Positions 21,742 through 50,278 of a stretch of 64,000 nucleotides of DNA are shown here, one piece after another. The stretch comes from Clostridia bacterium (lineage in GTDB: Bacteria; Bacillota; Clostridia; Oscillospirales; CAG-272): contig JAFSSQ010000010.1 of NCBI GenBank assembly GCA_017450965.1, forward strand, positions 6,424 to 70,423. Reading direction: 5' to 3'. Made by a program: the position numbers and the translations under genes. Each line of letters begins with the position of its first letter. The first letter of the stretch is position 1. The notes under the pieces were generated by a model, which worked only from the letters and a program-made list of their open reading frames with translations, did not search any database and had not been told where the DNA came from.

Positions 21742-21742
21742 G

Positions 21743-24138: not shown

Positions 24139-24146
24139 GCGTTTTG

Positions 24147-29498: not shown

Positions 29499-29527
29499 TT
29501 GCGTTTACGCGCGAGCGGTGCTATTCT
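29499..29527 (+). promoter_or_regulatory. SigA-type promoter for the PfkB-ADH-FSA operon
   Basis: TTGCGT-N17-TATTCT with extended -10; closely resembles the promoter at 20699. Confidence 0.6.
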
Positions 29528-29561
29528 TTTGCTGAACAATCAGGCAAGGAGGCAGACCCTC

Positions 29562-30509
29562 ATGGCGACAGTTTACGGATTCGGTACGGCGGCGGTGGAT
29601 TTCCGCATCCGCACCGCGGATTTCGGCGATCTTTACAAGGACAAGCTCCTGGCGCAGACCATCGCGGAGATGGGCGGCGGCGCCGTGGCAAACTTCCTTT
29701 CCCAGGTCTCCCGTCTCGGCGGCAAGACCGCGTTTCTCGGCAAACTCGGCAGGGACGTGCCGGGGAAGAAGATCGTTTCTCTCCTGGAAGCGGAGGGGAT
29801 CGACTGCTCGCATATCCTGTATTCCGACACGCTCTGCTCTCCCTTCAACGTGGCCGCCTATTCCGGCGAGGGGATGCGCCGCCGCTGCGGCTTTCTGCTC
29901 CCGAACAGTCTTGCGTCGCTTGACGGGGAGGATATTTCCGCTCTGACGGAGGCGATCCGCCCGGAGGATCTGGTGATGGTCGAGATCGGAGAGATCCCGC
30001 CGGCCGCCGTGCTGTCCTTTATGCGGAAGGTGCGCGCGAAAGGGGCCAAACTCTTTATCGACGTGGACCTCGACCCCATCCGCCAGTGCGGCTTTACCCC
30101 AAAAGAGTTCGACGAGGTCTGCCGGCTCTCCGACGTCCTGATCCCGAACGTGGTCTCCCTCGGGGCGCTCTACCCCGATATGACGGCGCCCGCTTTGGCG
30201 GAAACGCTGTTTAAGATCTACGAAAAGCCCTGCGTGGTTTCCGCCGGACGGGACGGCGCCTTCTTCGCGGACCGGCCCGGTCCCGCGCAGAACGTCCCGG
30301 TCTACGAGGTCGAGGTGGTCGACACCGTCGGCGCGGGGGACGCGTTCCACGGCGGATTTGTTTACGGAATGCTTTCCGGCCTGCCGATCGGAGAGGCGGT
30401 GCGCTGCGGCTGCGTCTGCGGCGCGCTCAACTGCCGTACCTTCGGCGCGCGGGAAGGGATGGCGCGCAGGGAAGACCTGGACCGCGCCCTGAAAGGAGAA
30501 AACGGATGA
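29562..30509 (+). CDS. PfkB family carbohydrate kinase
   Basis: GGGAVAN, GKLGRD, PN, VDTVGAGDAFHGG, CGALNC...GAR. AGGAGG RBS. Confidence 0.9.
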   Translation: MATVYGFGTAAVDFRIRTADFGDLYKDKLLAQTIAEMGGGAVANFLSQVSRLGGKTAFLGKLGRDVPGKKIVSLLEAEGIDCSHILYSDTLCSPFNVAAYSGEGMRRRCGFLLPNSLASLDGEDISALTEAIRPEDLVMVEIGEIPPAAVLSFMRKVRAKGAKLFIDVDLDPIRQCGFTPKEFDEVCRLSDVLIPNVVSLGALYPDMTAPALAETLFKIYEKPCVVSAGRDGAFFADRPGPAQNVPVYEVEVVDTVGAGDAFHGGFVYGMLSGLPIGEAVRCGCVCGALNCRTFGAREGMARREDLDRALKGENG

Positions 30510-31717
30510 GTTCTTATTACAGCTTGCTCGAGACGGCGACCGACGCGCAAAAGCAGATCGCCGCGCTCCGGTTCCCCGGAGACGACGCCGCGGAAAAGGG
30601 GATCTTCCTCGGCTGCGGCGCCGCGCTGAAGGCCGGAGAGTTTCTGAAAAAGAGAGGAGCGTCCCGGGTGGCGGTCGTCGCCGACCGGATCCTCGAAAAG
30701 GTCGGGCTGCTCACGCCCGTCCTCGATTCTCTGAAGGAAAACGGCCTCGCGTACGACGTGTTTTCCGATATCGCGCCCGAGCCGCATACCGACGATCTGG
30801 CCGCGGCGGAGGCGTTTGCCCGCGCTCTTGCGGCGGACGCGGTGCTCGGCTTCGGCGGCGGCAGCTCGCTCGATACCGCAAAGGTCACGGCCTGCGCCCT
30901 GTCCGGCGCGGCGTCTTCTGTCGATCTGATCACCGGCAAAGCGCCGGTTTCCCGCGCCGTCCCGCTGATCCTGCTGCCCACGACCTCCGGTACGGGGAGC
31001 GAGGTCAGCCCTTACGCCGTGGCGAGCCACGAGGGCAAAAAGGTCTTTATTTCCTCGCCCGCCGCGATCGCGGACGCCGCTCTCGTCGACCCGCTGATGA
31101 CGGTCACGATGCCGCCGTCCGTTACCGCCTGCACCGGGCTTGACGCTCTCACGCACGCGGTGGAGGGCATGTGCGGCTGCCCCAACCCCTTCACGAAAGC
31201 GCTGGCCAAAGAGGCGACGGAGATCGTCTTCTCCTCTCTCCCGGCGGCGGTCGCGGAGCCGGAAAACCTCGACGCGCGTACGAAAATGTCCTACGCCTCG
31301 GTGCTCGGGATGATGGCGTACACGCAGGGAGGCGGGCTCTACGCGCACAGCGCCTCGTATATCATCACCCTGCAAAAGAACAAACCCCACGGGCTCGGCT
31401 GCGGACTGACGCTGCCGTACACGCTCGCGCTCAACCTCGCCGAGATCCGGGATCTGCTCACGGGCCTGATCCCCGCGATCAAAGCAAGCGGGCTCGCGGC
31501 GCCGGCAAGCGCCGATGAGGTGCCCGCCGCCTTCCTTGCGCTGGTGAAGAAGGTCGGCGTTCCCGCCACGCTGGCGGAGATCGGCTATACCGAAGCGGAC
31601 GTTCCCGCCTTCGGCCACGCCCTCTTTGCCGATTACTACCGCGCGAAAAATCCGAAAAAAGCCGACGAAGCCGACCTTGTCGCGCTGGCCGGCCGGATGC
31701 TGACCGGGACGATCTGA
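30506..31717 (+). CDS. Iron-containing alcohol dehydrogenase
   Basis: GGGSSLDTAK, PTTSGTGSEVS, DALTH, H...PHG metal ligands. Confidence 0.88.
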   Translation: MSSYYSLLETATDAQKQIAALRFPGDDAAEKGIFLGCGAALKAGEFLKKRGASRVAVVADRILEKVGLLTPVLDSLKENGLAYDVFSDIAPEPHTDDLAAAEAFARALAADAVLGFGGGSSLDTAKVTACALSGAASSVDLITGKAPVSRAVPLILLPTTSGTGSEVSPYAVASHEGKKVFISSPAAIADAALVDPLMTVTMPPSVTACTGLDALTHAVEGMCGCPNPFTKALAKEATEIVFSSLPAAVAEPENLDARTKMSYASVLGMMAYTQGGGLYAHSASYIITLQKNKPHGLGCGLTLPYTLALNLAEIRDLLTGLIPAIKASGLAAPASADEVPAAFLALVKKVGVPATLAEIGYTEADVPAFGHALFADYYRAKNPKKADEADLVALAGRMLTGTI

Positions 31718-31772: not shown

Positions 31773-32486
31773 ATGGAAATTTACGGTGCCGGTTCTCTCG
31801 AGGACGTGCGGATTTGCACGGAGCTCGGCGTCACGGGGATCCTCACGAATCCCCAGGGCTTTGAGCAGTATTATCAGGGCAAGATGACGCTCCGCGAGAT
31901 CACCGAAGCTCTCCTCAAAGCGAGCGACGACGGCCGCGACATCCCGGTCTTCATCCAGGTCCACGGACGTGACGCGGAGGAGATCGCCCACCGCGTGGAG
32001 GAGCTGCACGAGCTCAACCCCCGCCGCGTCTGCGGCAAGATCATCGCGGACGAAAAGGGCTTCCGCGCGATCAAAAAACTGCACGACGAAGGCATCCGCT
32101 GCGTCGCGACCTGCCTCTTCTCGCTCTCTCAGGCGGCGGTCGCCGCGATGGTCGGCGCTTACGCGATCTGCCCGTTCGTCTCCCGCGCGACCGCGATGGA
32201 GATGGATATGTTCGGCATCATCCGCAGCATCAAAGAGTGCTACCGTGACACGCCGAACGCGCCCCGCATCCTCGCCGCCAGCATCAAGAGCACCGCGGAC
32301 GTCAACGGCGCTTACGCCGCCGGTACGGACGCCGTCGCGCTCCGCTATCCGATGCTCCAGCAGATGATGGACCACGTCCTCACCACCCGCGCGGAAGCGC
32401 TCTTCGCCAAGAACTGGGCGAACGTCAAGGGCGAGGACATGAGCTACATGAAGGAAAAGATCAAACTCGAAGGCATCGCGGAATAA
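31773..32486 (+). CDS. Fructose-6-phosphate aldolase/transaldolase family protein, atypical active site
   Basis: TNP, FIQV, Schiff-base K (VCGKII), T-x-LFS, PFVSR, LAASIK. Confidence 0.8.
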   Translation: MEIYGAGSLEDVRICTELGVTGILTNPQGFEQYYQGKMTLREITEALLKASDDGRDIPVFIQVHGRDAEEIAHRVEELHELNPRRVCGKIIADEKGFRAIKKLHDEGIRCVATCLFSLSQAAVAAMVGAYAICPFVSRATAMEMDMFGIIRSIKECYRDTPNAPRILAASIKSTADVNGAYAAGTDAVALRYPMLQQMMDHVLTTRAEALFAKNWANVKGEDMSYMKEKIKLEGIAE

Positions 32487-32542: not shown

Positions 32543-33451
32543 TTATCCGATCTCAAACGCCGCCAGCAGCCGCCGGAACGTGTCCTGCCCGTCGAGACAG
32601 GTGTCGGTAAGCCAGCCCTTTTCGTTCTCCCATTCGGCGAGCCCGCGATAATAAAATGCCTTTTTGCCGTCCTCGATGAGGAAGGGAACGATCCGGTACC
32701 GCAAGCACTCCTTGAGCGCGATCAGCCGCCCGACGCGGCCGTTTCCGTCCTGGAACGGATGGATCTTTTCAAACGCCGCGTGGAAGGCGACGATATCTTC
32801 CACGGAGATTTCCGGTTTCGCGTTGTAACCGGCGAGCAGCTCTTTCATCCGCGCCGGCACGTCTTTCGGCTTCATCGTTTCCCGCCCTCCCACAACGTTG
32901 GGGCGTTTTTTGTACTCTCCCACGGCAAACCAGGCAAGCGTGGAATCTTTTGTGTCGTGTTTCAGGATAAAGTGCAGTTTTTTGATGATCGCCTCGGAGA
33001 GCGGTTCCTCGGCGCAGTCGATCACGTAATCGATGGCGCGGAAGTGATGTACCGTCTCCAGAACGTCGTCGACCGGAACGCCGTCGCCGATAGTCAGCGT
33101 GTTCGTTTCGTAGATCAGACGCGTCTGATCCTCGGTCAGACGGCTGCCTTCGATATGGTTGGAGTTGTAGGTCATACGCACCTGCAGCTCGTGATACAGA
33201 CCGCCCGAGAGTTTCGCTTCTTTTTCTTCGCGCAGGGTCTGCAGGATCGGATTGTCCGAGATTTCACGGACGAGGTCTTCCGGACGGCACACAAAGAAAG
33301 CGGCGAGCTTTTTCATCACGGCAGGGGAAAGTTTTTCGCCCTTGCCGATCTTGGCGACCGTCCGCGACGAGAGCCCGAGCAGCCGTGTCAGATCCGATCG
33401 CCCGATCCCGCGCTCCTTCAGTTTTTCTTCAAGCCCATGGTAGGAAATCAT
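32543..33451 (-). CDS. Fic family protein with N-terminal Cro/C1-type HTH
   Basis: Canonical HPFQDGNGRVGR and TYNSNHIEG; N-terminal HTH (LTRLLGLSSRTVAKI). Confidence 0.93.
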   Translation of the reverse strand: MISYHGLEEKLKERGIGRSDLTRLLGLSSRTVAKIGKGEKLSPAVMKKLAAFFVCRPEDLVREISDNPILQTLREEKEAKLSGGLYHELQVRMTYNSNHIEGSRLTEDQTRLIYETNTLTIGDGVPVDDVLETVHHFRAIDYVIDCAEEPLSEAIIKKLHFILKHDTKDSTLAWFAVGEYKKRPNVVGGRETMKPKDVPARMKELLAGYNAKPEISVEDIVAFHAAFEKIHPFQDGNGRVGRLIALKECLRYRIVPFLIEDGKKAFYYRGLAEWENEKGWLTDTCLDGQDTFRRLLAAFEIG

Positions 33452-33638: not shown

Positions 33639-34403
33639 CTAGGCTCTTTGCGCTGAGGCATAGAAATTTGCTTTTTCCGGGCATAAGGAAGCAACCTCAA
33701 TGATTATAAGCCGCGGGGTTTTTCCGAACGGGGGCGAAATATAGGGAGAAAACCACAAAACAAAATCAGCTCCACATTGTTTTATTTTTTTTAAAAAATC
33801 AATGTCGTAACATGGATGATGGAGTGCCTTGCTGGTTTTTCCGTTTTTGTTGATGACGCGAAAATGCTCATGTTCGGATATATCGCACACTACAAAAGCA
33901 AGGTGGTCACATTCCGGATGATTCTTTTTATAATATGATATTTTGTTCTTGTGGCTATCGATCACGCGGCAAAAATTCTGATAGTATTGGTCATAATCCG
34001 GTTCCATTTTGTCTTCATACTCGAACATTATGTTAGTAACAGCTGGGAATTGGTTTGTAATACTTGATTTTATAATCTCCTTTGCTGAAAAAGCGCCTTC
34101 TCTTGCAGGGGGATTATCCGGGCTTCCGCCGGGCTTTGTCTTTTCATAATCATTGACACTCATGAATTCAAGCATCAGTTTCTTTTCGGAATTGATGTAA
34201 TCGGGCGGATTGCTTGTGTTTTCAGAGTTGTCAAGCCAACCGTTCGATTCTTTCAAAGTTTTGAAACACTTTTTTTCAAGAGGGGATCCGGTAAGATAAA
34301 CGACTTGTTTTTTTGTTGTTTTAATTAAATGTTCAAAAGCATACTTTTCTTTTTGGAAAAGATCATGAACAAATTTCCCGTTTTGAATCATTCCAAAAGC
34401 CAT
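33639..34403 (-). CDS. Hypothetical protein, possible PD-(D/E)xK-like nuclease
   Basis: AT-rich 254-aa ORF 8 bp after res; PPDY...LMLEF motif. Confidence 0.55.
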   Translation of the reverse strand: MAFGMIQNGKFVHDLFQKEKYAFEHLIKTTKKQVVYLTGSPLEKKCFKTLKESNGWLDNSENTSNPPDYINSEKKLMLEFMSVNDYEKTKPGGSPDNPPAREGAFSAKEIIKSSITNQFPAVTNIMFEYEDKMEPDYDQYYQNFCRVIDSHKNKISYYKKNHPECDHLAFVVCDISEHEHFRVINKNGKTSKALHHPCYDIDFLKKIKQCGADFVLWFSPYISPPFGKTPRLIIIEVASLCPEKANFYASAQRA

Positions 34404-34411
34404 TTTTTCAT

Positions 34412-36565
34412 TTATCCGCCTGATTTAATGATCGGAGATTTCATAAACCTCTGAAACTGTTCCAGCGTCATATTCCTTTCGTTTCCGTTTGCCAACTGTG
34501 TGATATGCCATTCATCGCCCTTATAAACTGGAAGGTAGAACATATATTCAGTAAGAAGCGATGCTTGTTTATAACACCTTTTAAGTTCCTCAACTTTGAC
34601 CTTGTAGGCGGTGGAGTCAAACGCCGTCGGCGTTGCATTAGATATGTTAACGCTCTTTACTTCAAACAAATGAATTCTATCAAAAGAATCCTTCATAATG
34701 AAATCCGGATACGACGAGTGAACGCCGCCTAAGCAGTATTCAAACTTTATTTCGGAGTTTAATAAAAAGTTTTTACCCCATAAGTATTTTTGTGCGGCAT
34801 CTATCCTTTCCGGCTCGATTTCGCCAAAAAGATCAACTTGACCGGCTTTCGGATTTCGTTTACCCGTCAACACACGTTTTCCGACGCGCTTTCCGTCAAA
34901 CCCCTCTGTATCAGACGAAACGAGTTCTTTGATAATGCTTGCCCATTCGCGTTCAGCTTCACTATCAAACGAGAACTTATCCTTGCCGTCTCTTCTTCTC
35001 CATACCCAGTCTCCGATGTTTACATAATTGCGATTATCAACATAGGAAGAGGTAACGGGGAACGATACTTCGCGCGGTGTGCCGGCGTCATCGGTTGTTA
35101 ACTCCATACTCTCCGCATAATCGCAAGAGTAACGGTTACTTTCCGCCTCGATTTTCTCCGCGTGCTCGGCAACTCTCCACCATTTTTCGATATTGTTGCC
35201 AATGTATTCATAGCAGAGATCCCTTGCAGCGTTATCCAGCTTTTGAGTTGCCTTGTATAGATCAAAAATGTTTGAATAACTGGATACGTTCGGCTGGCTC
35301 GACAAAAACTCCTCAAGATCAAATCCGGTTTTTTTCGTGAGCGGCTTCAAGCGTGTAGTATGTATTCTGATTGCGTTTGTAATATCCTCCGGCTCGTCCC
35401 ACAAACGAACGCCGATGGTTTTTCTAACGTTATCATCGATGTTTGCCCATATCCAAGCCGTCATTGCAAGTTCTTGCGCTTGCGGAGAAAGATGCTCATA
35501 ATCAAGCAACCTCGGATTCCTTCTGACTCTGCCTATAACCTGCTCGCCGAGGATGGGACTTTGTACAGATCTGACTTGATATAACATACAAGCTCTTGGA
35601 ATATCCCATCCCTCGGATATAACCATCTTGAAAATGATAACATCAATGCCACTTGTGTTTTCTTTAGCATAGTCTTTCCATTTGGAAACAGGGAGGACAC
35701 GACACTTATCGGTAGTTTCGCTTTTTATGCCGTTTTCTTTTTTTTCGTCGACAATAAGCATCCAGTTCAAGTTTCGTCTTTTGAGTTCAGGGAAAACTAA
35801 ATTGTTTAACTCATCAACCCCTTGTTCGCCATTGGATATTTGAATAATAAGGCACGGATTAATATTAAGAAGGTCAAGGTAGTTTTGCTTAATTTCTTCA
35901 AACTTGTTGATCGCGTCGCCAAGATTATCTTTTTCTTCTCCCTCAACAATATGTTTGATCAATTTTGCGTTTTCCGCATCGGTTGATTTGATCTCTACAT
36001 CGGGGTACTGTCCTTTTGTGGGATCCGGTGTTGCAGAGAAGTTCAACACTTTTGCAAAATAAGTGTGAGATAGAATATCAAGATTGTTTGTTGCGCTGTG
36101 GCACTCGTCTTTGATAAGATATACTTCCTTGTGGTTTTTCCAAGAATAGCAGCCGGTTATTTCCTGAAAAAACGCATCCATTGCTGCCCCTTGCATCAAT
36201 CTGCTTCCTTCTCTGTAAAGGTCGCGAGGAAGAACATATACATTGTAATCCGTGGGAATATACAACCGTTCTTCTCCCGAAAGTTCGGATGAAATCAGAT
36301 ACGGATTCAGATGCGGGAATGCCCCTGTTTGTTGATACTCGCAAAACTTTGAATAGTTCTGTCCTGCAAGATCGCCTTTCGATAACGAGGATACCAAAAA
36401 TACTATATCATCATTTTGTTCGAGAACACGATTCATCAAATCAGCCATCATATATGTTTTGCCGCTGCCGGTAGGAGCTTTGAACGTGATCTCGTTTTTG
36501 TCACGGAGCTGTTCAACCAGTTCCAAAACAGCGTTGAGTTGAAGATCTTTCGCTTCCTGTAACAT
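34412..36565 (-). CDS. res: Type III restriction endonuclease subunit (SF2 helicase + PD-(D/E)xK)
   Basis: APTGSGKT, DECH, SAT, EGWD, QVIGRVRR, C-terminal YPDF...FEVK. TAATG coupling to mod. Confidence 0.9.
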   Translation of the reverse strand: MLQEAKDLQLNAVLELVEQLRDKNEITFKAPTGSGKTYMMADLMNRVLEQNDDIVFLVSSLSKGDLAGQNYSKFCEYQQTGAFPHLNPYLISSELSGEERLYIPTDYNVYVLPRDLYREGSRLMQGAAMDAFFQEITGCYSWKNHKEVYLIKDECHSATNNLDILSHTYFAKVLNFSATPDPTKGQYPDVEIKSTDAENAKLIKHIVEGEEKDNLGDAINKFEEIKQNYLDLLNINPCLIIQISNGEQGVDELNNLVFPELKRRNLNWMLIVDEKKENGIKSETTDKCRVLPVSKWKDYAKENTSGIDVIIFKMVISEGWDIPRACMLYQVRSVQSPILGEQVIGRVRRNPRLLDYEHLSPQAQELAMTAWIWANIDDNVRKTIGVRLWDEPEDITNAIRIHTTRLKPLTKKTGFDLEEFLSSQPNVSSYSNIFDLYKATQKLDNAARDLCYEYIGNNIEKWWRVAEHAEKIEAESNRYSCDYAESMELTTDDAGTPREVSFPVTSSYVDNRNYVNIGDWVWRRRDGKDKFSFDSEAEREWASIIKELVSSDTEGFDGKRVGKRVLTGKRNPKAGQVDLFGEIEPERIDAAQKYLWGKNFLLNSEIKFEYCLGGVHSSYPDFIMKDSFDRIHLFEVKSVNISNATPTAFDSTAYKVKVEELKRCYKQASLLTEYMFYLPVYKGDEWHITQLANGNERNMTLEQFQRFMKSPIIKSGG

Positions 36566-38205
36566 TACTTGTCTTCCTCCAGACGCTTTTTCCAATCAGC
36601 GTCACTTTCAAGAACCTTTTGAGTTCCTTCAAAGTTCCGACAAATCCACTCGATCTTTTCTTTCAACGTGCTGAATTTCTCTTGACCGTACAACGTTTCA
36701 TCAATCACGTCAAAAGCCGTCTGCCCCGGAACACTTTCAAAATTAGCAACCTCCGCAATCTCATACACGTCAAGACTGCCGCCTAAAGGTTCATTGTCAT
36801 TAGCCCATTTGAAGTCGGTTGATCCGTCATAACAACTGCCAGTCATTGTTCTTTTTAACCTTTTTGAAGTAACATCATAGGCAATGCCGTGTGGATTTAC
36901 AGGTGTTTTTTCGTTTATTTGGCAGAGAACAAATCGTCTCTTTCCGTCATCTTGTTTATTCAATTCAAGAACCGCTTGACCTGTAGTTCCGCTTCCTGCA
37001 AAAAAGTCTAAAACCGTTGCTTCCTTTTTCCAATAAGTAGTCGATTTTAATAAGAGCTGGACAAGACCGACAGGCTTTGGATTGTCAAATGTATCGTCCA
37101 AAATCTCTTCTAATTGTGCGGTGCCATCTTCGTTTGTTTCACAGTTATAAAATACTTGAGATAGCATATTCCCCATTTTTTTGATTTCGCCGCCATCCTT
37201 TACAAGGTTGGGTCTAAATGGCACTTGGCTAATCGTAATAATGCTTCCTTTTGAGATCTCGTCATCAAGCGTTTCTTGACTATATCTCCATTCGCCTTCA
37301 AGCACCATCTCATTTATGTTTGTTCCATCCTCAATTACAACATCATTTAGTAGTCTTGTAATGATATTCCCGTTTGACATATCTTGTGCCTTGACTGTGC
37401 CATCAGGCATATTGAACCTAACGCGATTGGGTGGGAAATGCAATTTCCCCATAGTGTTTCCTGCGTTATTGAAAGGGTATTTTTTTCCAACAGTTGTTGT
37501 TTCAACAGAAAACGGAAAAGTTTCTTGATAATTAGCCACATAGCAAAGAATGTACTCGAACATTGTCCCAAAGTTCTTTGACAAGAATGACGGTTTTTTC
37601 TTTTTTTGCCAAATAATTGTTCCCGAGTAGTTTCTCTCTTGAAACACTTCATCCATTAGGCATTTTACATACGCATAATTACGATCATCAATACTACAAA
37701 ATATCACACCTGTTTCAGATAACAACATCTTCGCAAGTGTCAATCTGGAATAAAGCATGGACAATAAATTATCACGTGTCAATGCATTCTCATAATTTGT
37801 CTGAGCAAATTCGCCCATGCTGTCTTTCCCATACGGTGGATCAATATAAATAACATCAATTTTGCCCTTGTACTGAATAAGCAAATTGAGCAAACCGTCG
37901 TAATTATCGCCAATAATCAATTTGTTCGGCGACTTATCCGACCCATCTGAAAAACTCAATTCTTCGTTTTTCTTGAAATACTTTATAGCGGGCTCGGTTT
38001 TTTCAAGGCGTTTATCAAAATGGAATCCCGTCCTCTTATAAGTTGTACCGAGTTCGGCAATAAAAATTGCTTCCGTCAGCGTGTCGGCGTTTTGAATAAG
38101 CTTTTTAAGAAGATCAGCGTTGCTCTTTTCGATAATACCGTCTTCCATACGGCGATCCAGTTCGTTTATCAGTTCCTGCCGGCTTTGTTCAAAAACTGTT
38201 TTCAT
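36565..38205 (-). CDS. mod: Type III DNA methyltransferase subunit
   Basis: IYIDPPY and VLDFFAGSGTTG in beta-class order. ATG 38205 with GGAG RBS. Confidence 0.92.
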   Translation of the reverse strand: MKTVFEQSRQELINELDRRMEDGIIEKSNADLLKKLIQNADTLTEAIFIAELGTTYKRTGFHFDKRLEKTEPAIKYFKKNEELSFSDGSDKSPNKLIIGDNYDGLLNLLIQYKGKIDVIYIDPPYGKDSMGEFAQTNYENALTRDNLLSMLYSRLTLAKMLLSETGVIFCSIDDRNYAYVKCLMDEVFQERNYSGTIIWQKKKKPSFLSKNFGTMFEYILCYVANYQETFPFSVETTTVGKKYPFNNAGNTMGKLHFPPNRVRFNMPDGTVKAQDMSNGNIITRLLNDVVIEDGTNINEMVLEGEWRYSQETLDDEISKGSIITISQVPFRPNLVKDGGEIKKMGNMLSQVFYNCETNEDGTAQLEEILDDTFDNPKPVGLVQLLLKSTTYWKKEATVLDFFAGSGTTGQAVLELNKQDDGKRRFVLCQINEKTPVNPHGIAYDVTSKRLKRTMTGSCYDGSTDFKWANDNEPLGGSLDVYEIAEVANFESVPGQTAFDVIDETLYGQEKFSTLKEKIEWICRNFEGTQKVLESDADWKKRLEEDK

Positions 38206-38305
38206 TTTTATTATCTCCAATTCTTACTATTCGTTCAGTATTTGAGTATTTCAACGGATAGAACAAGTTTCATTTTGCAGAGAGCGGCGAGGACAACGCG
38301 GTAAA

Positions 38306-38795: not shown

Positions 38796-38841
38796 GCGTG
38801 ACCTTCCGCATAGGCGCGGCGCGGGACGGCTTTGCCGGCCG

Positions 38842-38877
38842 AAAAAATCTCCCTCCCGCCGGATCGGCGGGAGGGAG
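38842..38877 (-). terminator. Intrinsic terminator after the GRE activase
   Basis: 12-bp stem ctccctcccgcc/ggcgggagggag followed by atttttt on the minus strand. Confidence 0.8.
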
Positions 38878-38885
38878 GTTGGTTG

Positions 38886-39794
38886 TTACCGGAACCGTAC
38901 CGGTTTGTCGGTTTGCTTTTTGAGCGCCTCGAGGAAGGCGAGGTTTTCCTCGCGGGAGGCGAGGGGGGTATCGGCGAGGGCGTAGGGCCTGCCGAGCTCG
39001 CGGTATTTGCCGACGCCGAGCCGGTGATAGGGGAGCAGCTCCACGGCGGCGACGGGGAGGGGGGCGAGGAGGGCCGCCAGGTCCGCTGCAAACGCCCCGG
39101 TCATATTGACGCCGGGGATGAGGGGGACGCGGACGACCGTCTCGGTGAGCTTTGCCGCCGTCCGGAGATTTTCGAGGATCGGCTTGTTGCTTTGTCCGGT
39201 ATAACGGATATGTTCGGCCTCGTCGAGAAGCTTCACGTCAAAGTAGACGCGGTCGACCATGCCGGCGATCCGGGCAAAAACGGCGGGATCCGCGAAGCCG
39301 CAGGTTTCGATCATCACGTTGATCTTTTCCCGTTTGAGGCGTTCGATCAGCGCGAGAACGAAGTCCGCCTGGGCGGTTACCTCGCCGCCGGAGAGGGTGA
39401 CCCCGCCGCGAGAGTCCTCGTAGTAGTCCCGGTCCTTCAGTATGAGCTCGGTCAGCTCGTCGACGGTGTAGGGCTTGCCCGCCTCCCGGATCCGGTCAAA
39501 CGGGCATAGCGTTTCGCACCTTCCGCAAAAAACGCACTTGTCCGGGTCGGCCGACACGCCCTGTTCCGAAAGGGAGAGCGCGCCCTGCGGGCAGGCGGAA
39601 AGGCATTTTCGGCAGTCGGCGCACGCGCCGGCGGGCTTGATCATCAGCTCGGAGGAAAAACTCTGCGACTCGGGGTTGCAGCACCACGCGCAACGCATCG
39701 GACAACCCTTGAAAAAGACGGTCGTCCGGATGCCGTCCCCGTCGAACAGGCAGAAACGCTGAACGTCGAAGATCAGAGCAGTCGTTTTCACCAT
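38886..39794 (-). CDS. Glycyl-radical enzyme activating enzyme (radical SAM, with 2x[4Fe-4S] insert)
   Basis: DGDGIRTTVFFKGCPMRCAWCCNPES, CxxCxxCxxxCP twice, GVTLSGGE, LLPYH. Confidence 0.95.
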   Translation of the reverse strand: MVKTTALIFDVQRFCLFDGDGIRTTVFFKGCPMRCAWCCNPESQSFSSELMIKPAGACADCRKCLSACPQGALSLSEQGVSADPDKCVFCGRCETLCPFDRIREAGKPYTVDELTELILKDRDYYEDSRGGVTLSGGEVTAQADFVLALIERLKREKINVMIETCGFADPAVFARIAGMVDRVYFDVKLLDEAEHIRYTGQSNKPILENLRTAAKLTETVVRVPLIPGVNMTGAFAADLAALLAPLPVAAVELLPYHRLGVGKYRELGRPYALADTPLASREENLAFLEALKKQTDKPVRFR

Positions 39795-42130
39795 TTTTTA
39801 CCGCCCGATTCCTGGCAGGTCCTGCGGATGATGTCGTCCTGAAGCGCCCGCTCGATCGTGGTGAAGAGAACGGAGAAGCCCGCCACCCGGACCATCAGCG
39901 TGGGGTATTTTTCCGGGTGGATCTGCGCGTCGCGCAGGACCGCCTCGTCGAAGACGTTGAACTGGATATGCTGTCCGCCGTGCTTGAAGTAGGTCCGGAC
40001 GAGGTCGGCGATCTTCTCCTTGTTTTCGTCGGTGAGGAAGTTGGGGGTCAGCCGGAGATTGAGAAGACTGGAGCCGAGGACCTTCGTCGGGGTGAGTTTG
40101 ACCACCGAGTTGAGCAGCGCCGTCGCGCCGAGCTGATCCCTGCCGTGTCCCGCGGAAACGCCGCCGTCGGCGAGGTTGTCGAACGCCTTTCTCCCGTCCG
40201 GCGTCGCGCCCGTGTACTTGGCAAAGAGGACGTTCGAGGCGATGGTATAAAGCGCCAGGCGGTACTTGCCGCCGCGGGGAGAGGTGTACTTTTCCACCTC
40301 GCCGTAGAGGAAGTCGACAAGGTCCCGGCCGATCAGATCGACCGAATCGTCGTCGTTGCCGTACTTCGGCGATTTGTTTTTCAGCAGCGAGCGGAGATCC
40401 TCGCGGCCCTCAAAGTTGGAGAGGAGCGCGTCCTTCAGCTCGGAGAAGGAGACCGTTTTTTCGTCGTAGACGAACTTTTTCATCGCGCGGAGACTGTCGA
40501 TCACGTTGGGAACGGCAACCATCTGCAGGGTGGTCGAGTTGTACTTGGCGCCGCCCTCGAGATTTGTTTTGCCCGCGTCGAGACAGCCGCGGATAAAGGC
40601 GGAGACGAACGGCGTGGGGCAGAGCGAGCCGTGCAGCTCGTCGAGGACGTCGTCGCCCTTGATATTGAGCATCAGATAGTGGGCGAGCTGCGTCTTGAAG
40701 GCGGCGTAAAACGCCTCCCACGTCATCGTTTCCGCGTCTCCGGTGCGGAAGGGGAACTGCCGCTTGGCGACGGGATCGTACCCGTCGAAGAGCGTCAGCT
40801 CCAGCACCTTCGCCACGTTGAGGAAGCCCCCGGTGAGCCAGGGCTCCACGTTCCCGTTCCCCGTCGTCTCGGAGCAGCCGACGATGGTGTAGTCGTTCGC
40901 TTCCTTTTCGTCGTAGCCCATCGTCCGCATATTGGCGATGAGCGTTTTGTCGTTGAACATGGCGGGCATCCCGCCGCCGATGCGGACGGTGTCGAGAGCC
41001 GCGAGCAAAAACCGCTTGCTCGATTTTTCCTCGTTCCAGCGGATGGAGAGGGAGGGCTGGGGCAGAGCGATCTGCCGCGTCGCCGCGAGACAGAGGTAGG
41101 AGAGCTCGTTTTCCGCCGGGTTTCCGTCTTCGTCGATCCCGCCGACGATCAGGTTCTGGAACATGGGGTATCCGCCGAAGGCGATCGTGGAGACCTTATC
41201 CCGGATCTTGTTCAGCTCAAAGAACTTCAGCCACAAGAAGTGCAGCGTTTCCTCCAGCTCCTCGACCGGCACCCCTCTCTCGAGGTCGTGCTTGAAGTAG
41301 GGGAGCATATACTGGTCGAAGCGCCCGGGGGACATACTGTGGCCGCTCGCCTCGAGATGGAGCGCGAGATGCACGAGCCAGAAGGACTGCACCGCCTCGG
41401 CAAACGTTTCAGCGGGGCGGGCGGGGACTTTATGGAGGATGCGGGCGATCTCGGAGAGCTCCGCTTTCCTTTCTTCGTTTTCCTCCGTTTCCGCTTTTTC
41501 CCGCGCCAGCGCGGCGTAGCGCTCCGCGTAGGCGCAGATCGCCCGGAGAGAGATCTCGACCGCGTCGTAGTAGGCGGCGTGCTCTTCGGTGCGTTTTTCT
41601 TTTACTTCCTCCAGGATCCCGAGGATCCCCCGTTCGAGGAAGGAGCGGTAGTCGATCACGAGGTGCCCGATCCCGGAGCGCATCGCCGTGAGGATATACA
41701 CCAGCGAGGAGGCCGCGTCCTTCTGCTCGTCGGAGAGACGGAGGAAGGCGCGGTAGGCGATCGTTTTATCCTGCCAGTAGGGATAGATCGCGCGCAGCCG
41801 GGCTTTCGTCTCCTCGGAGATGAGGAAACGGTCGGTATTCCGGTCCGCGAGTCCGTCCATCTCGTTGATCACGAAGGTCATATCGTATTCGGGGTAGACG
41901 GGGCATCCCCTCGCCTTGCCGCAGAGCGAGCCGACGACCCGCTCAAGATCCCCGATGTGGATATCGGTCTTCCCGAGGATCTCGCGGAAGGCGACAGCGC
42001 GCCGAAGGACAGAGGGCATGCCCTCTGTCCTTTGGTAGCTTTCGGTGATGATCTCCGCCCGGTCCGCAAAGACCTCGGGCGGGAAGGAGCAGATAAAGTC
42101 CTTCAGTTTCCGGATCCGTTCTGTCATCAT
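39788..42130 (-). CDS. Glycyl radical enzyme, glycerol/diol-dehydratase-like clade, substrate unknown
   Basis: Gly loop RVAGFS, single-Cys loop GCSE, GIGH, ESGHS-like EASGHS, FGGYPMFQN, GATPDGR. Confidence 0.93.
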   Translation of the reverse strand: MMTERIRKLKDFICSFPPEVFADRAEIITESYQRTEGMPSVLRRAVAFREILGKTDIHIGDLERVVGSLCGKARGCPVYPEYDMTFVINEMDGLADRNTDRFLISEETKARLRAIYPYWQDKTIAYRAFLRLSDEQKDAASSLVYILTAMRSGIGHLVIDYRSFLERGILGILEEVKEKRTEEHAAYYDAVEISLRAICAYAERYAALAREKAETEENEERKAELSEIARILHKVPARPAETFAEAVQSFWLVHLALHLEASGHSMSPGRFDQYMLPYFKHDLERGVPVEELEETLHFLWLKFFELNKIRDKVSTIAFGGYPMFQNLIVGGIDEDGNPAENELSYLCLAATRQIALPQPSLSIRWNEEKSSKRFLLAALDTVRIGGGMPAMFNDKTLIANMRTMGYDEKEANDYTIVGCSETTGNGNVEPWLTGGFLNVAKVLELTLFDGYDPVAKRQFPFRTGDAETMTWEAFYAAFKTQLAHYLMLNIKGDDVLDELHGSLCPTPFVSAFIRGCLDAGKTNLEGGAKYNSTTLQMVAVPNVIDSLRAMKKFVYDEKTVSFSELKDALLSNFEGREDLRSLLKNKSPKYGNDDDSVDLIGRDLVDFLYGEVEKYTSPRGGKYRLALYTIASNVLFAKYTGATPDGRKAFDNLADGGVSAGHGRDQLGATALLNSVVKLTPTKVLGSSLLNLRLTPNFLTDENKEKIADLVRTYFKHGGQHIQFNVFDEAVLRDAQIHPEKYPTLMVRVAGFSVLFTTIERALQDDIIRRTCQESGGKKW

Positions 42131-42160
42131 AATAGGTTCCGACCCTTCCGACGCGCAGGA

Positions 42161-43177
42161 TCAGGGGTTCTGCGCGGCTTTTTTCTTCTGCGCGAGCTCG
42201 TAGGCGACCTGGATGCAGATCTGCTCCTGCCCCTCGGTGCAGCCGCGGAGGCCGATCTCCTTGATGATGTCGCGGGTGTCGACGCCGAACTTCGCCGCCG
42301 CGCGCCGCGCAAAGAGGATAAAGCTGGAGTAGACGCCGTAGCCGAGCATGATCTGGTCGCTCGTCAGCTCCATCGGGCGCGGCATCAGCGGTTTGAGGTA
42401 CTCGTCGCCCACGTCCATCGCCTTGTACATATCCACATTGGTGCGGTAGCCCTTGCGGTCCAGCGCGAGCAGCAGCGGCTCGACGGGGCAGTTGCCCGCG
42501 CCGGCGCCGAAGCCCTTGATGCAGGTGTCCACGTAGGTCGCGCCCGCGTCGATCGCCGCGAGGGTGTTGGCGACGGCAAGCTGCATATTGTTGTGCGCGT
42601 GGAAGCCGAGCGGAACGTCGATGTGCTTCTGGAGGGTGAAGATGCGCTCGTAGACTTCCTCCGGCAGGGCGGATCCGCCGCCGTCGAGGAGGTAGATCAC
42701 CTCGGCGCCGAATTTCTCGGAGATCTGGGCGTAGCGGAGCGTCTCCTCCACCGAGAGGAACTTGGCGAGCGGGAGGACCGCCCACGGGATCAGGCCCATC
42801 TCTTTCGCCATGCCGATATGCTGACGCGCGATGTCGCACTCGGACATCTGGGTGGCGAACCGGGCGACGGTGATGCCGTTTTCCTTCGCCATCTTCAGAT
42901 CGTACCGCGTCCCGATACCGGGGAGGGTGATGATCGCGAGCTTCGCGTTTTTCACCTTCGGGCGGACGGCTTTCATATACTCCTCGTCCGTCGCGGCGCC
43001 GAATCCGTACTGGATGGAGGAACCGCCGACGCCGTTTCCGTGGCCGAATTCGATGAAGTCGACGCCGGTGCTGTCGATCTGTTCCGCGAGCATCGCCATC
43101 TGCTCCGTCGTGTACTTGTGGCTCATCGCGTGCGAGCCGTCGCGGAGCGTGGAATCGAGAATGTTGATCCGTTTCAT
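42161..43177 (-). CDS. mhpE: 4-hydroxy-2-oxovalerate aldolase-like (DmpG/MhpE, DRE-TIM)
   Basis: LRDGSH, HGNGVGGSS, GFHAHNN, GFGAGAGN, GVYSSF. ATG 43177 with GGAGG RBS. Confidence 0.9.
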   Translation of the reverse strand: MKRINILDSTLRDGSHAMSHKYTTEQMAMLAEQIDSTGVDFIEFGHGNGVGGSSIQYGFGAATDEEYMKAVRPKVKNAKLAIITLPGIGTRYDLKMAKENGITVARFATQMSECDIARQHIGMAKEMGLIPWAVLPLAKFLSVEETLRYAQISEKFGAEVIYLLDGGGSALPEEVYERIFTLQKHIDVPLGFHAHNNMQLAVANTLAAIDAGATYVDTCIKGFGAGAGNCPVEPLLLALDRKGYRTNVDMYKAMDVGDEYLKPLMPRPMELTSDQIMLGYGVYSSFILFARRAAAKFGVDTRDIIKEIGLRGCTEGQEQICIQVAYELAQKKKAAQNP

Positions 43178-43179
43178 AA

Positions 43180-44061
43180 TCAGTGATTGCCTCCTTGTTT
43201 CAAGAGATGTTCGGCGATCCCTTCGCCGACCGCCAGCGCAGCGCTCGTCTCGATATCGAGATTGCCGCTGTATTTGGGGAGATAGTCGCCCGCGCCCTCG
43301 ATCTCGACCATGGTCGTGACCTGGTTGCCGTCGATCGTCGGCGGGAGCTTGAGGGAGTAACCGGGAACGTACTGCCGGACCCGTTCCACCATCCGGTTGA
43401 CCGCGTCGTTGATCTTCACCGGGTCGGGATCTTCCACGAGGCAGTAGATGGTGTTGCTCATCATGATGGGGGGCTTGGAGGGGTTGAGGAGAATGATCGC
43501 CTTGGATTTTTCCGCGCGGCCGACCACCCTCAGCGCCCGCGCCGTCGTGATGGTGAACTCGTCGATGCTGTCGCGGGTGCCGGGGCCGGCGCTGTCGCGC
43601 GCGATGCACGCCACGATCTCCGCGTAGTTGACCTTCGTCACCTCGCTGAGGGCGTACACGATCGGGATCGTCGCCTGTCCGCCGCAGGTGATCAGGTTGA
43701 GGTTCGGCTCGTTCTTGTACCCTTCCAGGTTGACGGGAGGGCAAACGTAGGGACCGATCGCGGCGGGGGTGAGGTCGACCGCGATCTTGCCGGCCGCCTT
43801 CAGGAGCGGCGCGTGCACCATGTGCGCGCTGGCGAGGGTGGCGTCGAAGACGATCTTGATGTCGTCATGCTCGAGGAGCCCTTCGATCCCGCGGTCGGTG
43901 GTCGGCACGCCGGCCGCCGCGGCGACGGGAAGGTGTTTCGAGGTGTCGTTGCCCACCATCAGCTTGAGCTCCATATACTTCGAGCGCTTGAGGATCTTGT
44001 ACATCAGGTCAAGCCCGATGTTGCCGGGACCGATGATTGCGACGGGGATTTTCTTTTCCAT
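43180..44061 (-). CDS. mhpF: Acylating acetaldehyde dehydrogenase (DmpF/MhpF)
   Basis: [44 protein letters not shown]. Confidence 0.93.
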
Positions 44062-44124: not shown

Positions 44125-45009
44125 TCAGGGGGTCTGTTTGCCGCGCAGCTCCCGGAGGTAAGCGGAGGGACTCTGCCCGCACTGCATCTTGAAGAAACGG
44201 CTGAAGGAATAGATATCGGGGAACCCGAGCAGATCTCCCACCCGGGAGGGGGAAAGTCCCTCCTCCAGCTTCTTTTTGGCGTATTCGGAGCGCAGGGAAT
44301 TGCAGTATTTGATCAGCGAAACGCCGTAGGTGGAGCGGAACTTTTTGACCAGATAGAACTTGTTGTAGTGGAACTGCTCCGAGAGGTCGTCCAGATTGAA
44401 GCGGGAGTTGAGGAAGTTTGCGTCGATAAAACTCTTGACGCTGCTGATGAAGTCCGGCTCCTCGTGCGCGAAGCTGCGCAGCTCGGAGATGTTGTCGCGG
44501 ATGATCATGCGCAGAAGCGCCGTCATCTGCTCCTTGCAGATCAGCTGATAGAGGACCGGCTTGTTGTGATAGGTGCGGATCACGTCCTCCACCAGAGAGA
44601 GGAAGACCTTGCGGTTGCTGACGTTGAGGAAGGGGTATTCCAGCTCCCCGCCGAAAAAGTCCGGCTGGACGCAGCGCCGCTCCTCCTCGGTGAAATCGGC
44701 GAGGTTTTTGTAAGAGACGTAGGAAAGCTCGCTGGAGGGCGTGTAGGTCACGTCGAAATGGATATGCGCGTGGAGCGGAGAGGAGTCCGGCGGAACGACG
44801 ATCGTGTGGTTGACGCCGGGCGGGATCAGGATGATATCGCCCTGCTTCGTTTCGTAGGTCTTTTCGTTCATCAAAAGAGTAAAGCCGCTGGAGATGAACC
44901 AGATCAGCTCGTAGTCAAAGAGCGCCCGCTCCTTGAAGACAAGTCCGGGACGGAGGGTCGAGGTGAGCGCGGCCCGGACGTAAGGGGAAACGGCGTTGAC
45001 GTTCAGCAT
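44125..45009 (-). CDS. AraC/XylS family transcriptional regulator
   Basis: N-terminal cupin (YELIW, GDIILIPPG); C-terminal double HTH ending GFPDIYSFSRFFKMQCGQSPSAY. Confidence 0.93.
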   Translation of the reverse strand: MLNVNAVSPYVRAALTSTLRPGLVFKERALFDYELIWFISSGFTLLMNEKTYETKQGDIILIPPGVNHTIVVPPDSSPLHAHIHFDVTYTPSSELSYVSYKNLADFTEEERRCVQPDFFGGELEYPFLNVSNRKVFLSLVEDVIRTYHNKPVLYQLICKEQMTALLRMIIRDNISELRSFAHEEPDFISSVKSFIDANFLNSRFNLDDLSEQFHYNKFYLVKKFRSTYGVSLIKYCNSLRSEYAKKKLEEGLSPSRVGDLLGFPDIYSFSRFFKMQCGQSPSAYLRELRGKQTP

Positions 45010-50205: not shown

Positions 50206-50278
50206 TTTTGGTTTTTCTCCTTGGGTTATTCGCAGAAAGAGCGGATTTTCCCTCTTCATCACTATCTTACCCTATTTC

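Follow-up and report, generated by a model that had tools for sequence, protein, structure and literature searches.

A clade of glycyl radical enzymes inherited with an MhpE/MhpF-type aldolase–dehydrogenase pair in strict anaerobes: a possible route from a hydroxy acid to pyruvate and acyl-CoA

Introduction

What does an aldolase–dehydrogenase pair of the kind used in aromatic meta-cleavage pathways do beside a radical enzyme of a strict anaerobe? The question is raised by a 64,000-nucleotide stretch of DNA (the window) from Clostridia bacterium (Oscillospirales; CAG-272; assembly GCA_017450965.1, contig JAFSSQ010000010.1, positions 6,424 to 70,423 of the forward strand), in which mhpF and mhpE, encoding a CoA-acylating acetaldehyde dehydrogenase and a class II 4-hydroxy-2-oxo-acid aldolase, form an operon with the genes for a glycyl radical enzyme (GRE) and its activating radical SAM enzyme (activase). 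An earlier note on this DNA had proposed two readings of this arrangement: either the GRE makes the 4-hydroxy-2-oxo acid that MhpE cleaves, or the GRE forms an aldehyde that is captured by MhpF. Although GREs have been sequenced in their thousands, only a few dozen are characterised in any depth (PMC13450708). Here we describe the distribution of this gene association, the residues that its enzymes retain, and the pathway that best accounts for both.

Results

mhpF-mhpE are co-inherited with one GRE clade

Genes were identified with Pfam and NCBIfam profile models, and bit scores are given against the NCBIfam equivalog cut-offs (Table 1). In the sequence the mhpE ATG follows the mhpF stop codon after 2 nt, and the GRE ATG follows that of mhpE after 30 nt, the latter as the earlier note had stated; the activase gene overlaps the GRE stop codon. 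Related loci were fetched, one genome per species, with a single GRE protein and with a 30-sequence alignment as queries, and were scanned by tblastn. The protein search returned a tight group of GREs 79–83% identical to the query and then a second tier at 44–58%, under names that were absent or generic. Wherever flanking sequence exists, mhpF-mhpE adjoin the GREs that are at least 48% identical to the query; the pair was found at none of the loci of GREs with 45% identity or less. In a maximum-likelihood tree of 152 GREs from the fetched loci, all mhpF-mhpE-linked GREs formed one monophyletic clade of 23 tips (support 1.0). The pair was present at all 21 clade loci with readable flanks, as against 0 of the 129 other GRE loci (Fisher p = 4e-26). 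The two clade tips without the full pair are contig ends: L001 retains the last 39 codons of mhpE, and the assembly of L083 has a matching mhpE at the end of another contig. A search of the species collection with the MhpE signature of the clade, IEFGHGNG, gave 18 loci, and every one of them either belongs to a genome with a clade GRE or carries the rest of the operon, including mhpF, at a contig end.

The carriers, as named in the titles of the sequence records, represent at least six phyla. They include Oscillospiraceae and other Clostridia of rumen and gut, Candidatus Limiplasma, Feifaniaceae, Desulfitobacterium, Desulfosporosinus, Peptococcaceae, Syntrophobacter, Desulfovibrio, Desulfocapsaceae, Nitrospiraceae/Nitrospirota, Victivallales and a planctomycete-like genome. 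Desulfosporosinus lacus DSM 15449 and Desulfosporosinus sp. I2 are carriers available in culture. The genes are ordered mhpF-mhpE-GRE-activase, GRE-activase-mhpF-mhpE, or GRE-activase beside a convergent mhpF-mhpE pair. Since the linkage is kept while the gene order varies, it has been selected and not merely inherited. The adjacency reported for this one genome is thus not unique to it but extends to a whole GRE clade. These data show that mhpF, mhpE, the GRE gene and the activase gene are co-inherited as a unit with that clade, which is best explained if they form a self-contained, horizontally mobile catabolic module of strict anaerobes.

MhpE and MhpF resemble an intact channelling complex without a meta-cleavage pathway

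MhpE consists of HMGL-like and DmpG_comm domains. When it was aligned to DmpG (1nvm_A), Arg15, Asp16, His19, the metal ligands of the HxH motif and the Tyr of GVYSSF were found to be kept, and Ile86 and Leu88 fell on the alkyl-pocket positions DmpG L88 and L90, which presumably set the aldehyde chain length in BphI. The catalytic residues are invariant in 21 of 21 orthologues (55–97% identity), except for a conservative Asp-to-Glu exchange in L089, and the alkyl pocket is always lined by Ile, Leu or Val. Because of this invariance MhpE appears to be a working aldolase here, more than a scaffold, and the pocket indicates that its aldehyde product is probably small and non-polar. In MhpF the catalytic Cys lies within NLITCGGQ. 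The best solved match is the acetaldehyde dehydrogenase 7z3s, DmpF (1nvm_B) matches as well, both over the full length, and the orthologues in the 21 GRE loci are 58–94% identical. The alignments show that the two proteins keep all the catalytic residues expected of a DmpG/DmpF-type channelling complex.

Like DmpG/DmpF, BphI/BphJ and the meta-cleavage MhpE/MhpF, the pair scores above the equivalog cut-offs and has conserved catalytic residues, a communication domain and a hydrophobic pocket for the aldehyde. It differs from them in that the clade MhpE has HGNG for HGDG, GNCP for GNAP and a one-residue deletion before GVYSSF, and in that the hosts are strict anaerobes in which the upstream enzyme is a radical enzyme. 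As the earlier note had observed, no MhpD-type hydratase, dioxygenase or hydrolase lies close to the operon, which is flanked by the AraC-family regulator and DUF4185 proteins. The same holds for the whole genome (2.07 Mb, 98% complete), in which the FAH/MhpD family (PF01557) gave no match and no meta-cleavage hydratase, ring-cleavage dioxygenase or hydrolase was found. A bacterial microcompartment shell protein (PF00936) likewise gave no match in this genome, and none is listed in the annotated relative loci.

It could be argued that there is no metabolic coupling at all, and that MhpE is a mere structural partner of MhpF or that the gene pair just travels with the GRE. In favour of this view, MhpE-type aldolases as a rule are stable only when complexed with the dehydrogenase. 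However, the catalytic residues of MhpE would then hardly be invariant over 55–97% identity and at least six phyla, and this MhpE clade occurs only together with the GRE, in a linkage that has survived reshuffling of the gene order. We consider the absence of coupling extremely unlikely.

The GRE is an eliminase-type enzyme with a remodelled pocket

The GRE has PFL-like (652 bits) and Gly_radical (96 bits) domains, and the features that define membership of the superfamily (IPR004184) are in place: an RVxG glycyl motif (RVAGFS), Cys419 on the Cys loop and an adjacent radical SAM activase. Cys419 and Glu421 are part of VGCSETT, and Gly418, Cys419 and Glu421 are invariant in 30 clade members. 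The Cys-x-Glu motif is the hallmark of GRE 1,2-eliminases and isomerases, in which the Glu acts as base on a substrate hydroxyl (PMC13450708). By this motif the GRE is assigned to the Cys-x-Glu 1,2-eliminase/isomerase mechanistic class. A PFL-like keto-acid formate-lyase was rejected since the GRE has a single Cys and not Cys-Cys; a decarboxylase acting on a dicarboxylate was rejected for chemical reasons, as nothing would stabilise the radical formed.

Among solved structures, glycerol dehydratase (GD; 612 bits) and propanediol dehydratase (583 bits) match best, together with the unnamed entry 9RCO. HypD, CutC, PflD/YbiW, HplG, HpsG and IslA are more distant (IslA/HpsG, 333–356 bits). For comparison of the substrate pockets, we take the glycerol-binding set of GD to be His164, His281/Ser282, Tyr339, Asp447, Tyr640 and Ser642, mapped onto the 1R8W alignment. 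The GRE keeps His156, His264, Ser265 and Tyr628, which correspond to GD His164, His281/Ser282 and Tyr640. Tyr339, His446, Asp447 and Ser642 of GD are all replaced, the first by Phe324, the His-Asp pair by Leu432/Thr433 inside a clade-invariant WLTGG, and Ser642 by Ile630, so that the glycerol-binding set of GD is retained only in part. Against propanediol dehydratase, Phe344 is present (Phe324), Val696 is changed to Ile (Ile630) and the His-Asp pair to Leu-Thr. The clade GRE therefore has in common with GD (Clostridium butyricum, 1R8W/1R9D) and propanediol dehydratase (Roseburia inulinivorans, 5I2A/5I2G) the Cys-x-Glu motif, the His164 equivalent, the His/Ser pair, the Tyr640 equivalent and the adjacent activase. 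It differs from GD in a Cys loop of GC(S/T)ETT instead of GCVEPQ and in an extra Gly in ADGGVS, which is common to PflD. The partners also differ: an aldolase–dehydrogenase pair and acid transporters here, as opposed to a microcompartment with a PduP-type dehydrogenase for GD and propanediol dehydratase.

This relationship speaks for a diol route, which develops the second reading of the earlier note and in which the GRE would be an ethylene-glycol or 1,2-propanediol dehydratase whose product, acetaldehyde or propanal, is converted to acyl-CoA by MhpF. The match scores, Phe324 and the placement of Ile630 at the Val696 position all agree with a diol as the substrate. On the other hand, the His446/Asp447 pair, which is kept in GD, propanediol dehydratase and 9RCO, is replaced by Leu/Thr throughout the clade. 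MhpE would moreover have no role in the window's clade in spite of its invariant catalytic residues, and a hydroxy-aldehyde released by it would be delivered through the MhpE–MhpF tunnel to MhpF, not to a reductase.

E. coli YbiW/PflD offers another comparison. Its 'anhydroglycolysis' likewise combines a GRE C-O lyase with an aldolase of the transaldolase/fructose-6-phosphate aldolase (FSA) fold, sugar phosphorylation and the alcohol dehydrogenase GldA (PMC13450708), a set of activities also found in the longer operons described below. PflD shares the LYT(I/V) and ADGG motifs with the clade GRE. The clade GRE is, however, only ~37% identical to it and belongs to a separate clade, a PfkB kinase takes the place of the PTS, and the FSA-like protein lacks the canonical Asp and Tyr. 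The YbiW/PflD pathway has no counterpart of MhpE/MhpF, and the shortest operons of the present clade have neither a kinase nor an aldolase of the FSA kind.

Minimal operons point to an organic acid as substrate

In eight loci (L155, L156, L088, L082, L089, L091, L172 and L174), mostly from sulfate or sulfite reducers, the operon consists only of a transporter, a regulator and the four genes of the module. The regulators are of the GntR-FCD, CdaR, DcuS/MalK-type two-component or sigma54 two-component kind, and the transporters are of the TRAP family or the major facilitator superfamily (MFS) (Table 1). The TRAP binding protein of L174 has its closest matches in the lactate-binding TTHA0766 and in keto-acid binders, and that of L155 keeps the Arg of the GxKxR motif, which we take to be the carboxylate-binding site of these proteins. 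From the types of transporter and binding protein it follows that the substrate entering is an organic acid. The nearest solved relatives of the TRAP binding proteins are too distant to name it: for L080 they are of the SiaP, erythronate or uronate type, those of L174 and L155 are of the lactate or keto-acid type, and L172 has none.

We regard these minimal operons as the strongest clue to the pathway. As they offer only acid import, the GRE and MhpE/MhpF, the most economical full pathway would run from the acid through a 4-hydroxy-2-oxo acid to pyruvate and acyl-CoA. The logic is like that of the E. coli rhm (yfaXWVU) and yjhIHG/yagEF systems, in which a regulator, an acid transporter, a dehydratase and a pyruvate aldolase lead to pyruvate and an aldehyde. 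The dehydratases there are of the enolase superfamily or IlvD type, unlike the GRE, the aldolases are of the HpcH or DHDPS (dihydrodipicolinate synthase) type, and there is no coupled acylating dehydrogenase. The diol route fares poorly here, since the minimal operons have acid transporters and no reductase.

The hosts of the minimal operons suggest a further alternative, namely a C-S or C-N lyase activity by which the GRE would release sulfite from a hydroxy-sulfonate or an amine from an amino-alcohol acid. The minimal operons occur in Desulfitobacterium, Desulfosporosinus, Desulfovibrio, Syntrophobacter, Desulfocapsaceae and genomes of the Nitrospirota type, known C-S-cleaving GREs share this ecology and also rely on TRAP import (PMC13450708), and Thr433 stands in place of the dehydratase Asp. 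In IslA, IseG and HpsG the sulfonate site consists of two Arg and one Gln (PMC13450708). That triad was not recognised in the GRE, to which those enzymes were not aligned, and no clade-specific invariant Arg was found. His156 lies where we would presume the sulfonate-binding Gln to be. The IslA/HpsG matches are weaker than those to the diol dehydratases, the same active-site motifs occur in fermenters that do not respire sulfite, and no sulfonate or amine could be constructed that yields a non-polar 4-hydroxy-2-oxo acid. A lyase of this kind seems very unlikely to us.

Lactate/glycolate-type flavoprotein dehydrogenases adjoin the module in L080 (13767-18414; electron-transfer flavoprotein, FAD-oxidase and LarA) and L172 (1-2574; GlcD-like and CCG protein). 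They may be there by chance or may hint at a 2-hydroxyacyl product.

The sister clade is probably associated with sugar acids

The 12 GREs nearest to the clade (40–45% identity to the query) are without MhpE/MhpF. Their neighbours, annotated by hand ORF (open reading frame) by ORF in L101, L110, L129, L130, L132, L137 and L140, comprise an activase, a TRAP transporter, a LacI or AraC regulator and enzymes of the Gfo/Idh/MocA, RpiB-type or mannitol-dehydrogenase families. This context makes the sister clade a probable sugar-acid GRE, and the whole branch looks devoted to anionic, sugar-like substrates. Such a sister clade speaks against a neutral diol as the substrate.

Fermenters add a kinase, an FSA-like protein and an alcohol dehydrogenase

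In fermenters, including the organism of the window, the operons are extended by a PfkB kinase, an iron-dependent alcohol dehydrogenase (Fe-ADH) and an atypical FSA-like aldolase. PfkB shares one operon with mhpF-mhpE-GRE in L080, L081, L084, L086, L090 and L173; PfkB, FSA-like and Fe-ADH genes together are in one operon with the module in these loci and in L184, and lie next to it in the window and in L006. Every extended locus with the GRE module also has Fe-ADH. In relatives whose GRE is 80% identical, the FSA-like gene lies elsewhere in the genome. When six genomes of the minimal type, from sulfate or sulfite reducers, were searched for the FSA-like protein, five gave ordinary transaldolases only (26–28% identity) and one gave no match. 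A conserved ORF of ~113–146 aa with no Pfam match lies between the TRAP or FSA-like gene and mhpF in L080 (6999-7367), L081 (6932-7309), L084, L086 and L184; it is absent from the window.

The FSA-like proteins form a sharply conserved subfamily that is 56–83% identical across phyla. They keep the Schiff-base Lys89, and they have an invariant Arg138, Ser170 and Lys172 at what we take to be the site for the phosphate. The residues at the FSA Q59 and Y131 positions are Gln62, where transaldolases have Glu, and Phe135, and Gly/Ala occupies the place of the N-terminal catalytic Asp (MEIYGAGS). With 94 bits against a cut-off of 246 and with the Lys kept but the Asp, Tyr and Glu positions changed, the window protein falls outside the FSA/small-transaldolase group. 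The subfamily also has an invariant N-terminal IYGAGS, a QVHG motif and none of the canonical Asp, Glu and Tyr acid-base residues, and it may use a donor without hydroxyl groups.

Pattern searches found the FSA-like protein in ~30 species of at least seven phyla, mostly without a GRE; Clostridia, Spirochaetota, Bacteroidota, Verrucomicrobiota, Planctomycetota and Lentisphaerota are among the groups represented. PfkB adjoins it in nearly every locus long enough to show neighbours, and Fe-ADH in ~60% of the loci. Other neighbours are a DHDPS-family lyase (often), BNR_2 sialidase-like propellers, DUF386, SSF, TRAP or GPH transporters, and SusC/SusD. Because most FSA-like/PfkB loci lack a GRE, this sugar module works alone and GRE-MhpE/MhpF is an add-on to it. 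In Oscillospiraceae, DUF4185 recurs beside the PfkB/Fe-ADH/FSA-like operon (L160, L165, L205, L208 and L209), which suggests that a glycan acted on by DUF4185 feeds this operon. We take DUF4185 to be GH183, a D-arabinofuranase family, DUF386 to include sialate anomerase, and the DHDPS family to include sialate and Kdo-type (3-deoxy-D-manno-octulosonate) lyases. The three enzymes look like a sequence of phosphorylation, aldol cleavage and reduction of the left-over aldehyde, as in the diol-yielding routes of fucose, rhamnose and D-arabinose. An attractive reading would be that Kdo or D-arabinose is converted to arabinose 5-phosphate and then to glyceraldehyde 3-phosphate and glycolaldehyde. FSA cleaves arabinose 5-phosphate, and FucO reduces glycolaldehyde or lactaldehyde (PMC9947464, PMC11166783).

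The diol route would explain these extended operons. Its starting aldehyde, glycolaldehyde or lactaldehyde, would be formed either from a sugar phosphate by PfkB and the FSA-like protein or by MhpE or a DHDPS-type lyase acting on a 2-keto-3-deoxy acid, and Fe-ADH would reduce it to the diol on which the GRE acts. Besides the seven loci in which the trio shares the operon of the module, and the window and L006, where it adjoins it, the kinase/FSA-like pair is found as an autonomous unit, with or without Fe-ADH, in ~20 other species, often with BNR_2, a DHDPS lyase, DUF386 or DUF4185. The activities of FSA and FucO just mentioned provide precedent in E. coli, and Acetobacterium woodii uses ethylene glycol anaerobically by means of a diol dehydratase and an acylating aldehyde dehydrogenase (PMC11166783). 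Weighed against the acid importers, the otherwise idle MhpE, the tunnel, the lost His-Asp pair and the sister clade, the diol route, foremost among the rival readings, nevertheless appears rather unlikely.

A scheme in which every conserved enzyme, including MhpE, receives a role can also be drawn. The substrate of the GRE would be a 2-keto-3-deoxy acid such as 4,5-dihydroxy-2-oxopentanoate, which forms from pyruvate and glycolaldehyde. Dehydration of the vicinal diol at its tail would give a 2,4-diketo acid, and reduction of the latter would give the 4-hydroxy-2-oxo acid for MhpE/MhpF. Were MhpE to catalyse the aldol addition too, pyruvate would serve as a carrier on which glycolaldehyde becomes acetyl-CoA. 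The scheme fits the keto-acid-type TRAP binding proteins, and the region remodelled near the carbon that loses its hydrogen, with the Thr-rich Cys loop and WLTGG, could hold the keto-acid arm while the bulkier Ile630 filled an unused methyl pocket. It requires, however, a ketoreductase, which is absent from the minimal operons. Fe-ADH also occurs in loci without a GRE and is therefore unlikely to be a dedicated ketoreductase. Such a cycle is without precedent, and for a hydrolytic variant the genome of the window offers no candidate enzyme, as it lacks an FAH-type acetylpyruvate hydrolase. This scheme is distinctly unlikely.

Organisation of the window

In the window the kinase, Fe-ADH and FSA-like genes (29499-32486, + strand) converge on the GRE operon, and a Fic-domain gene and a restriction-modification island lie between the two (Table 1). 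The kinase is ribokinase- or IolC-like, yet scores under all equivalog cut-offs, and the best NCBIfam match of Fe-ADH is lactaldehyde reductase (201 bits, under the cut-off). The island, with a GC content of 0.40 compared with ~0.62 in its flanks, encodes an N6/N4 methylase, a ResIII helicase-nuclease and a 254-aa ORF of no assigned family. It is missing from the 91%-identical locus L006, where the activase gene is 1.2 kb from the FSA-like gene. The island is an insertion and no part of the pathway. In L006 an orthologue of the AraC-family regulator, 86% identical, occupies the same position. The genome holds two further PFL-like genes on another contig. Elsewhere in the window, a second PfkB kinase followed by a SIS-domain protein could represent a separate sugar-phosphate entry route.

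Table 1. Features of the window and gene content of related loci
Locus	Feature	Position (strand)	Length	Remarks
Window	AraC-family regulator	44125..45009 (-)		First gene upstream of mhpF; HTH_18, HTH_AraC, AraC_binding domains
Window	mhpF, CoA-acylating acetaldehyde dehydrogenase	43180..44061 (-)	293 aa	TIGR03215 409 bits (cut-off 282)
Window	mhpE, class II 4-hydroxy-2-oxo-acid aldolase	42161..43177 (-)	338 aa	TIGR03217 388 bits (cut-off 286)
Window	GRE, PFL2/glycerol-dehydratase family	39788..42130 (-)	780 aa	TIGR01774 721 bits (cut-off 678)
Window	GRE-activating radical SAM enzyme	38886..39794 (-)	302 aa	TIGR02494 297 bits; Radical_SAM and ferredoxin-type cluster domains
Window	Intrinsic terminator	38815..38882 (-)		3' end of the mhpF-mhpE-GRE-activase operon; GC-rich hairpin CCTCCCTCCCGCCGATCCGGCGGGAGGGAG then TTTTTT; read from sequence
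Window	PfkB-family sugar kinase	29499..30509 (+)		First gene of the convergent companion operon; PfkB 132 bits; true start maybe ~60 nt further in
Window	Fe-dependent (group III) alcohol dehydrogenase	30506..31717 (+)		Fe-ADH and ADH_Fe_C domains
Window	Atypical transaldolase/FSA-fold protein	31773..32486 (+)		TAL_FSA 85 bits; FSA equivalog 94 bits (cut-off 246)
Window	HTH-Fic/DOC protein	32543-33451 (-)		Between the two convergent operons; 302-aa ORF, equal length, at the matching place in L006
Window	Type III restriction-modification island	33639..38220 (-)		Low GC; N6_N4_Mtase and ResIII domains; between the two operons
Window	Second PfkB kinase	20677-22339 (+)		Ribokinase-like, 212 bits; directly upstream of a 198-aa SIS-domain protein, beside a DUF4185 gene
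Window	Three DUF4185 (GH183-like) proteins	22403-24196; 45037-47718; 47764-50262
L080, L081, L086	Extended operon			IclR, PfkB, Fe-ADH, DctPQM, 122-aa ORF, FSA-like, mhpF, mhpE, GRE, activase in one string
L084	Extended operon			Additionally TRAP transporter, DUF386, DHDPS-family protein
L090	Extended operon			Fe-ADH, FSA-like, DHDPS, PfkB directly upstream
L173	Extended operon			BNR_2 propeller, GntR, FSA-like, PfkB, Fe-ADH, DUF3748 upstream
L155 Desulfitobacterium	Minimal operon			DcuS/MalK-type sensor and regulator, TRAP transporter, then mhpF-mhpE-GRE-activase
L088 Desulfosporosinus lacus	Minimal operon			Divergent CdaR-type sugar-diacid regulator, aromatic-acid-symporter-like MFS
L082 Nitrospiraceae	Minimal operon			GntR-FCD, aromatic-acid-symporter-like MFS
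L089 Syntrophobacter	Minimal operon			GntR-FCD, NanR- or LldR-like
L091 Desulfovibrio	Minimal operon			TRAP transporter, GntR-FCD
L156 Desulfovibrio sp. 3_1_syn3	Minimal operon			MFS; SfMCT (L-lactate transporter) model 315 bits (cut-off 320)
L172, L174	Minimal operon			TRAP transporters; sigma54 two-component system in L174

Discussion

The explanation that we tentatively favour, on the strength of conserved residues and gene context and with confidence a little short of even, is that the GRE turns a small hydroxy-carboxylate into a 4-hydroxy-2-oxo acid, which MhpE and MhpF split to pyruvate and acyl-CoA. The hydroxy-carboxylate would be imported or, in fermenters, be made from sugar by the kinase, the FSA-like aldolase and Fe-ADH. 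The thiyl radical of the GRE would abstract a hydrogen from a carbinol carbon, Glu421 would deprotonate its hydroxyl, and a neighbouring hydroxyl or other leaving group would be expelled to give the 4-hydroxy-2-oxo acid. MhpE would cleave this product to pyruvate and a short non-polar aldehyde, acetaldehyde or propanal, which would pass through the MhpE–MhpF tunnel and be oxidised to acetyl- or propionyl-CoA. Aldehyde-forming GREs are usually surrounded by a microcompartment, whose role would here be taken over by the tunnel. The clade-wide linkage, its variable gene order, the minimal operons with carboxylate-type transporters and regulators, the intact clade-specific MhpE, the canonical MhpF, the Cys-x-Glu motif, His164 equivalent, His/Ser pair and Tyr640 equivalent of the GRE, the sister clade and the lack of MhpD and of a microcompartment all count in support.

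Chemically, a single elimination gives a 4-hydroxy-2-oxo acid only from a 2-hydroxy acid with a leaving group at C3 and a hydroxyl at C4. Both the MhpE pocket, which is non-polar, and the Phe/Ile pocket of the GRE, which is hydrophobic, suit an acid with a methyl end better than a pentonate, and among the candidate substrates a methyl-ended 2,3,4-trihydroxy acid such as 5-deoxypentonate would fit these pockets best. Weaker candidates are pentonates, from which glycolaldehyde would arise, tetronates (formaldehyde) and 6-deoxyhexonates (lactaldehyde).

Several points weigh against this explanation. Dehydration at C2/C3 next to a carboxylate needs no radical chemistry, and enzymes of the enolase superfamily and IlvD type already carry it out; why a radical enzyme should be needed for the dehydration of an aldonate is unexplained. 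A clade-specific Arg or Lys able to hold a carboxylate or phosphate was looked for in the GRE and none was found; all invariant Arg are also present in GD, and Arg151 varies between Arg, Lys and Gly. The closest solved relatives are dehydratases of neutral diols, and Phe324/Ile630 form a pocket like that of propanediol dehydratase. The fusion of the module with the kinase, FSA-like and Fe-ADH genes in fermenters, including the organism of the window, is not accounted for by the model. Many genomes have this trio by itself, and it resembles a path that yields triose phosphate and an aldehyde for reduction to a diol. Kdo, uronates, 2,3-diketogulonate and tetronates were tried as sources from which the trio might supply an acid substrate, and no scheme met all the constraints.

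Both readings of the earlier note have thus survived in part. That the GRE makes the substrate of MhpE is supported by the minimal operons, the conserved catalytic residues of MhpE and the TRAP transporters and sugar-acid oxidoreductases of the sister clade, while the need for a radical and the trio are left unaccounted for. That MhpF captures an aldehyde made by the GRE agrees with the diol-type trio of the fermenters and with the diol-dehydratase relatives, and conflicts with the acid importers and the conserved MhpE.

Full-text literature searches returned no description of a GRE coupled to an MhpE/MhpF-type complex, and a 2026 review of the GRE superfamily names no such enzyme (PMC13450708). 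The parts are of known kinds, but their combination and the clade are new, so that we are dealing with a new combination and probably with a new substrate. We offer, still more cautiously than the pathway in outline, a specific new GRE function: that of a radical dehydratase or C-O lyase acting on a deoxy or branched sugar acid, for instance 5-deoxypentonate or an acid derived from aceric acid, whose product would be handed to a dedicated MhpE/MhpF channel with a tunnel that contains the toxic aldehyde. The compact context of importer, GRE, aldolase and acylating dehydrogenase predicts pyruvate and acetyl- or propionyl-CoA as products, and it offers a ready coupled NADH/CoA assay.

Each of the GRE functions discovered so far, for choline, hydroxyproline, isethionate, dihydroxypropanesulfonate and anhydro-sugars, has brought to light a flow of nutrients through anoxic environments like the gut. 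If the proposal made here is true, a three-enzyme anaerobic route would convert a hitherto unrecognised, cross-fed fermentation- or plant-derived acid to pyruvate and acetyl-CoA, and would be common to gut and rumen fermenters and to sulfate reducers. It would be, to our knowledge, the first link between a GRE and a DmpG/DmpF-type tunnel complex; this pair, known from textbooks for aerobic aromatic degradation, would gain a role in strict anaerobes and may show an alternative to microcompartments for the containment of aldehydes. The two-tier distribution, with an upstream sugar module in fermenters and an importer plus the core genes in sulfate reducers, resembles that of sulfonate cross-feeding and hints at a metabolite exchanged between guilds in rumen, gut and sediments.

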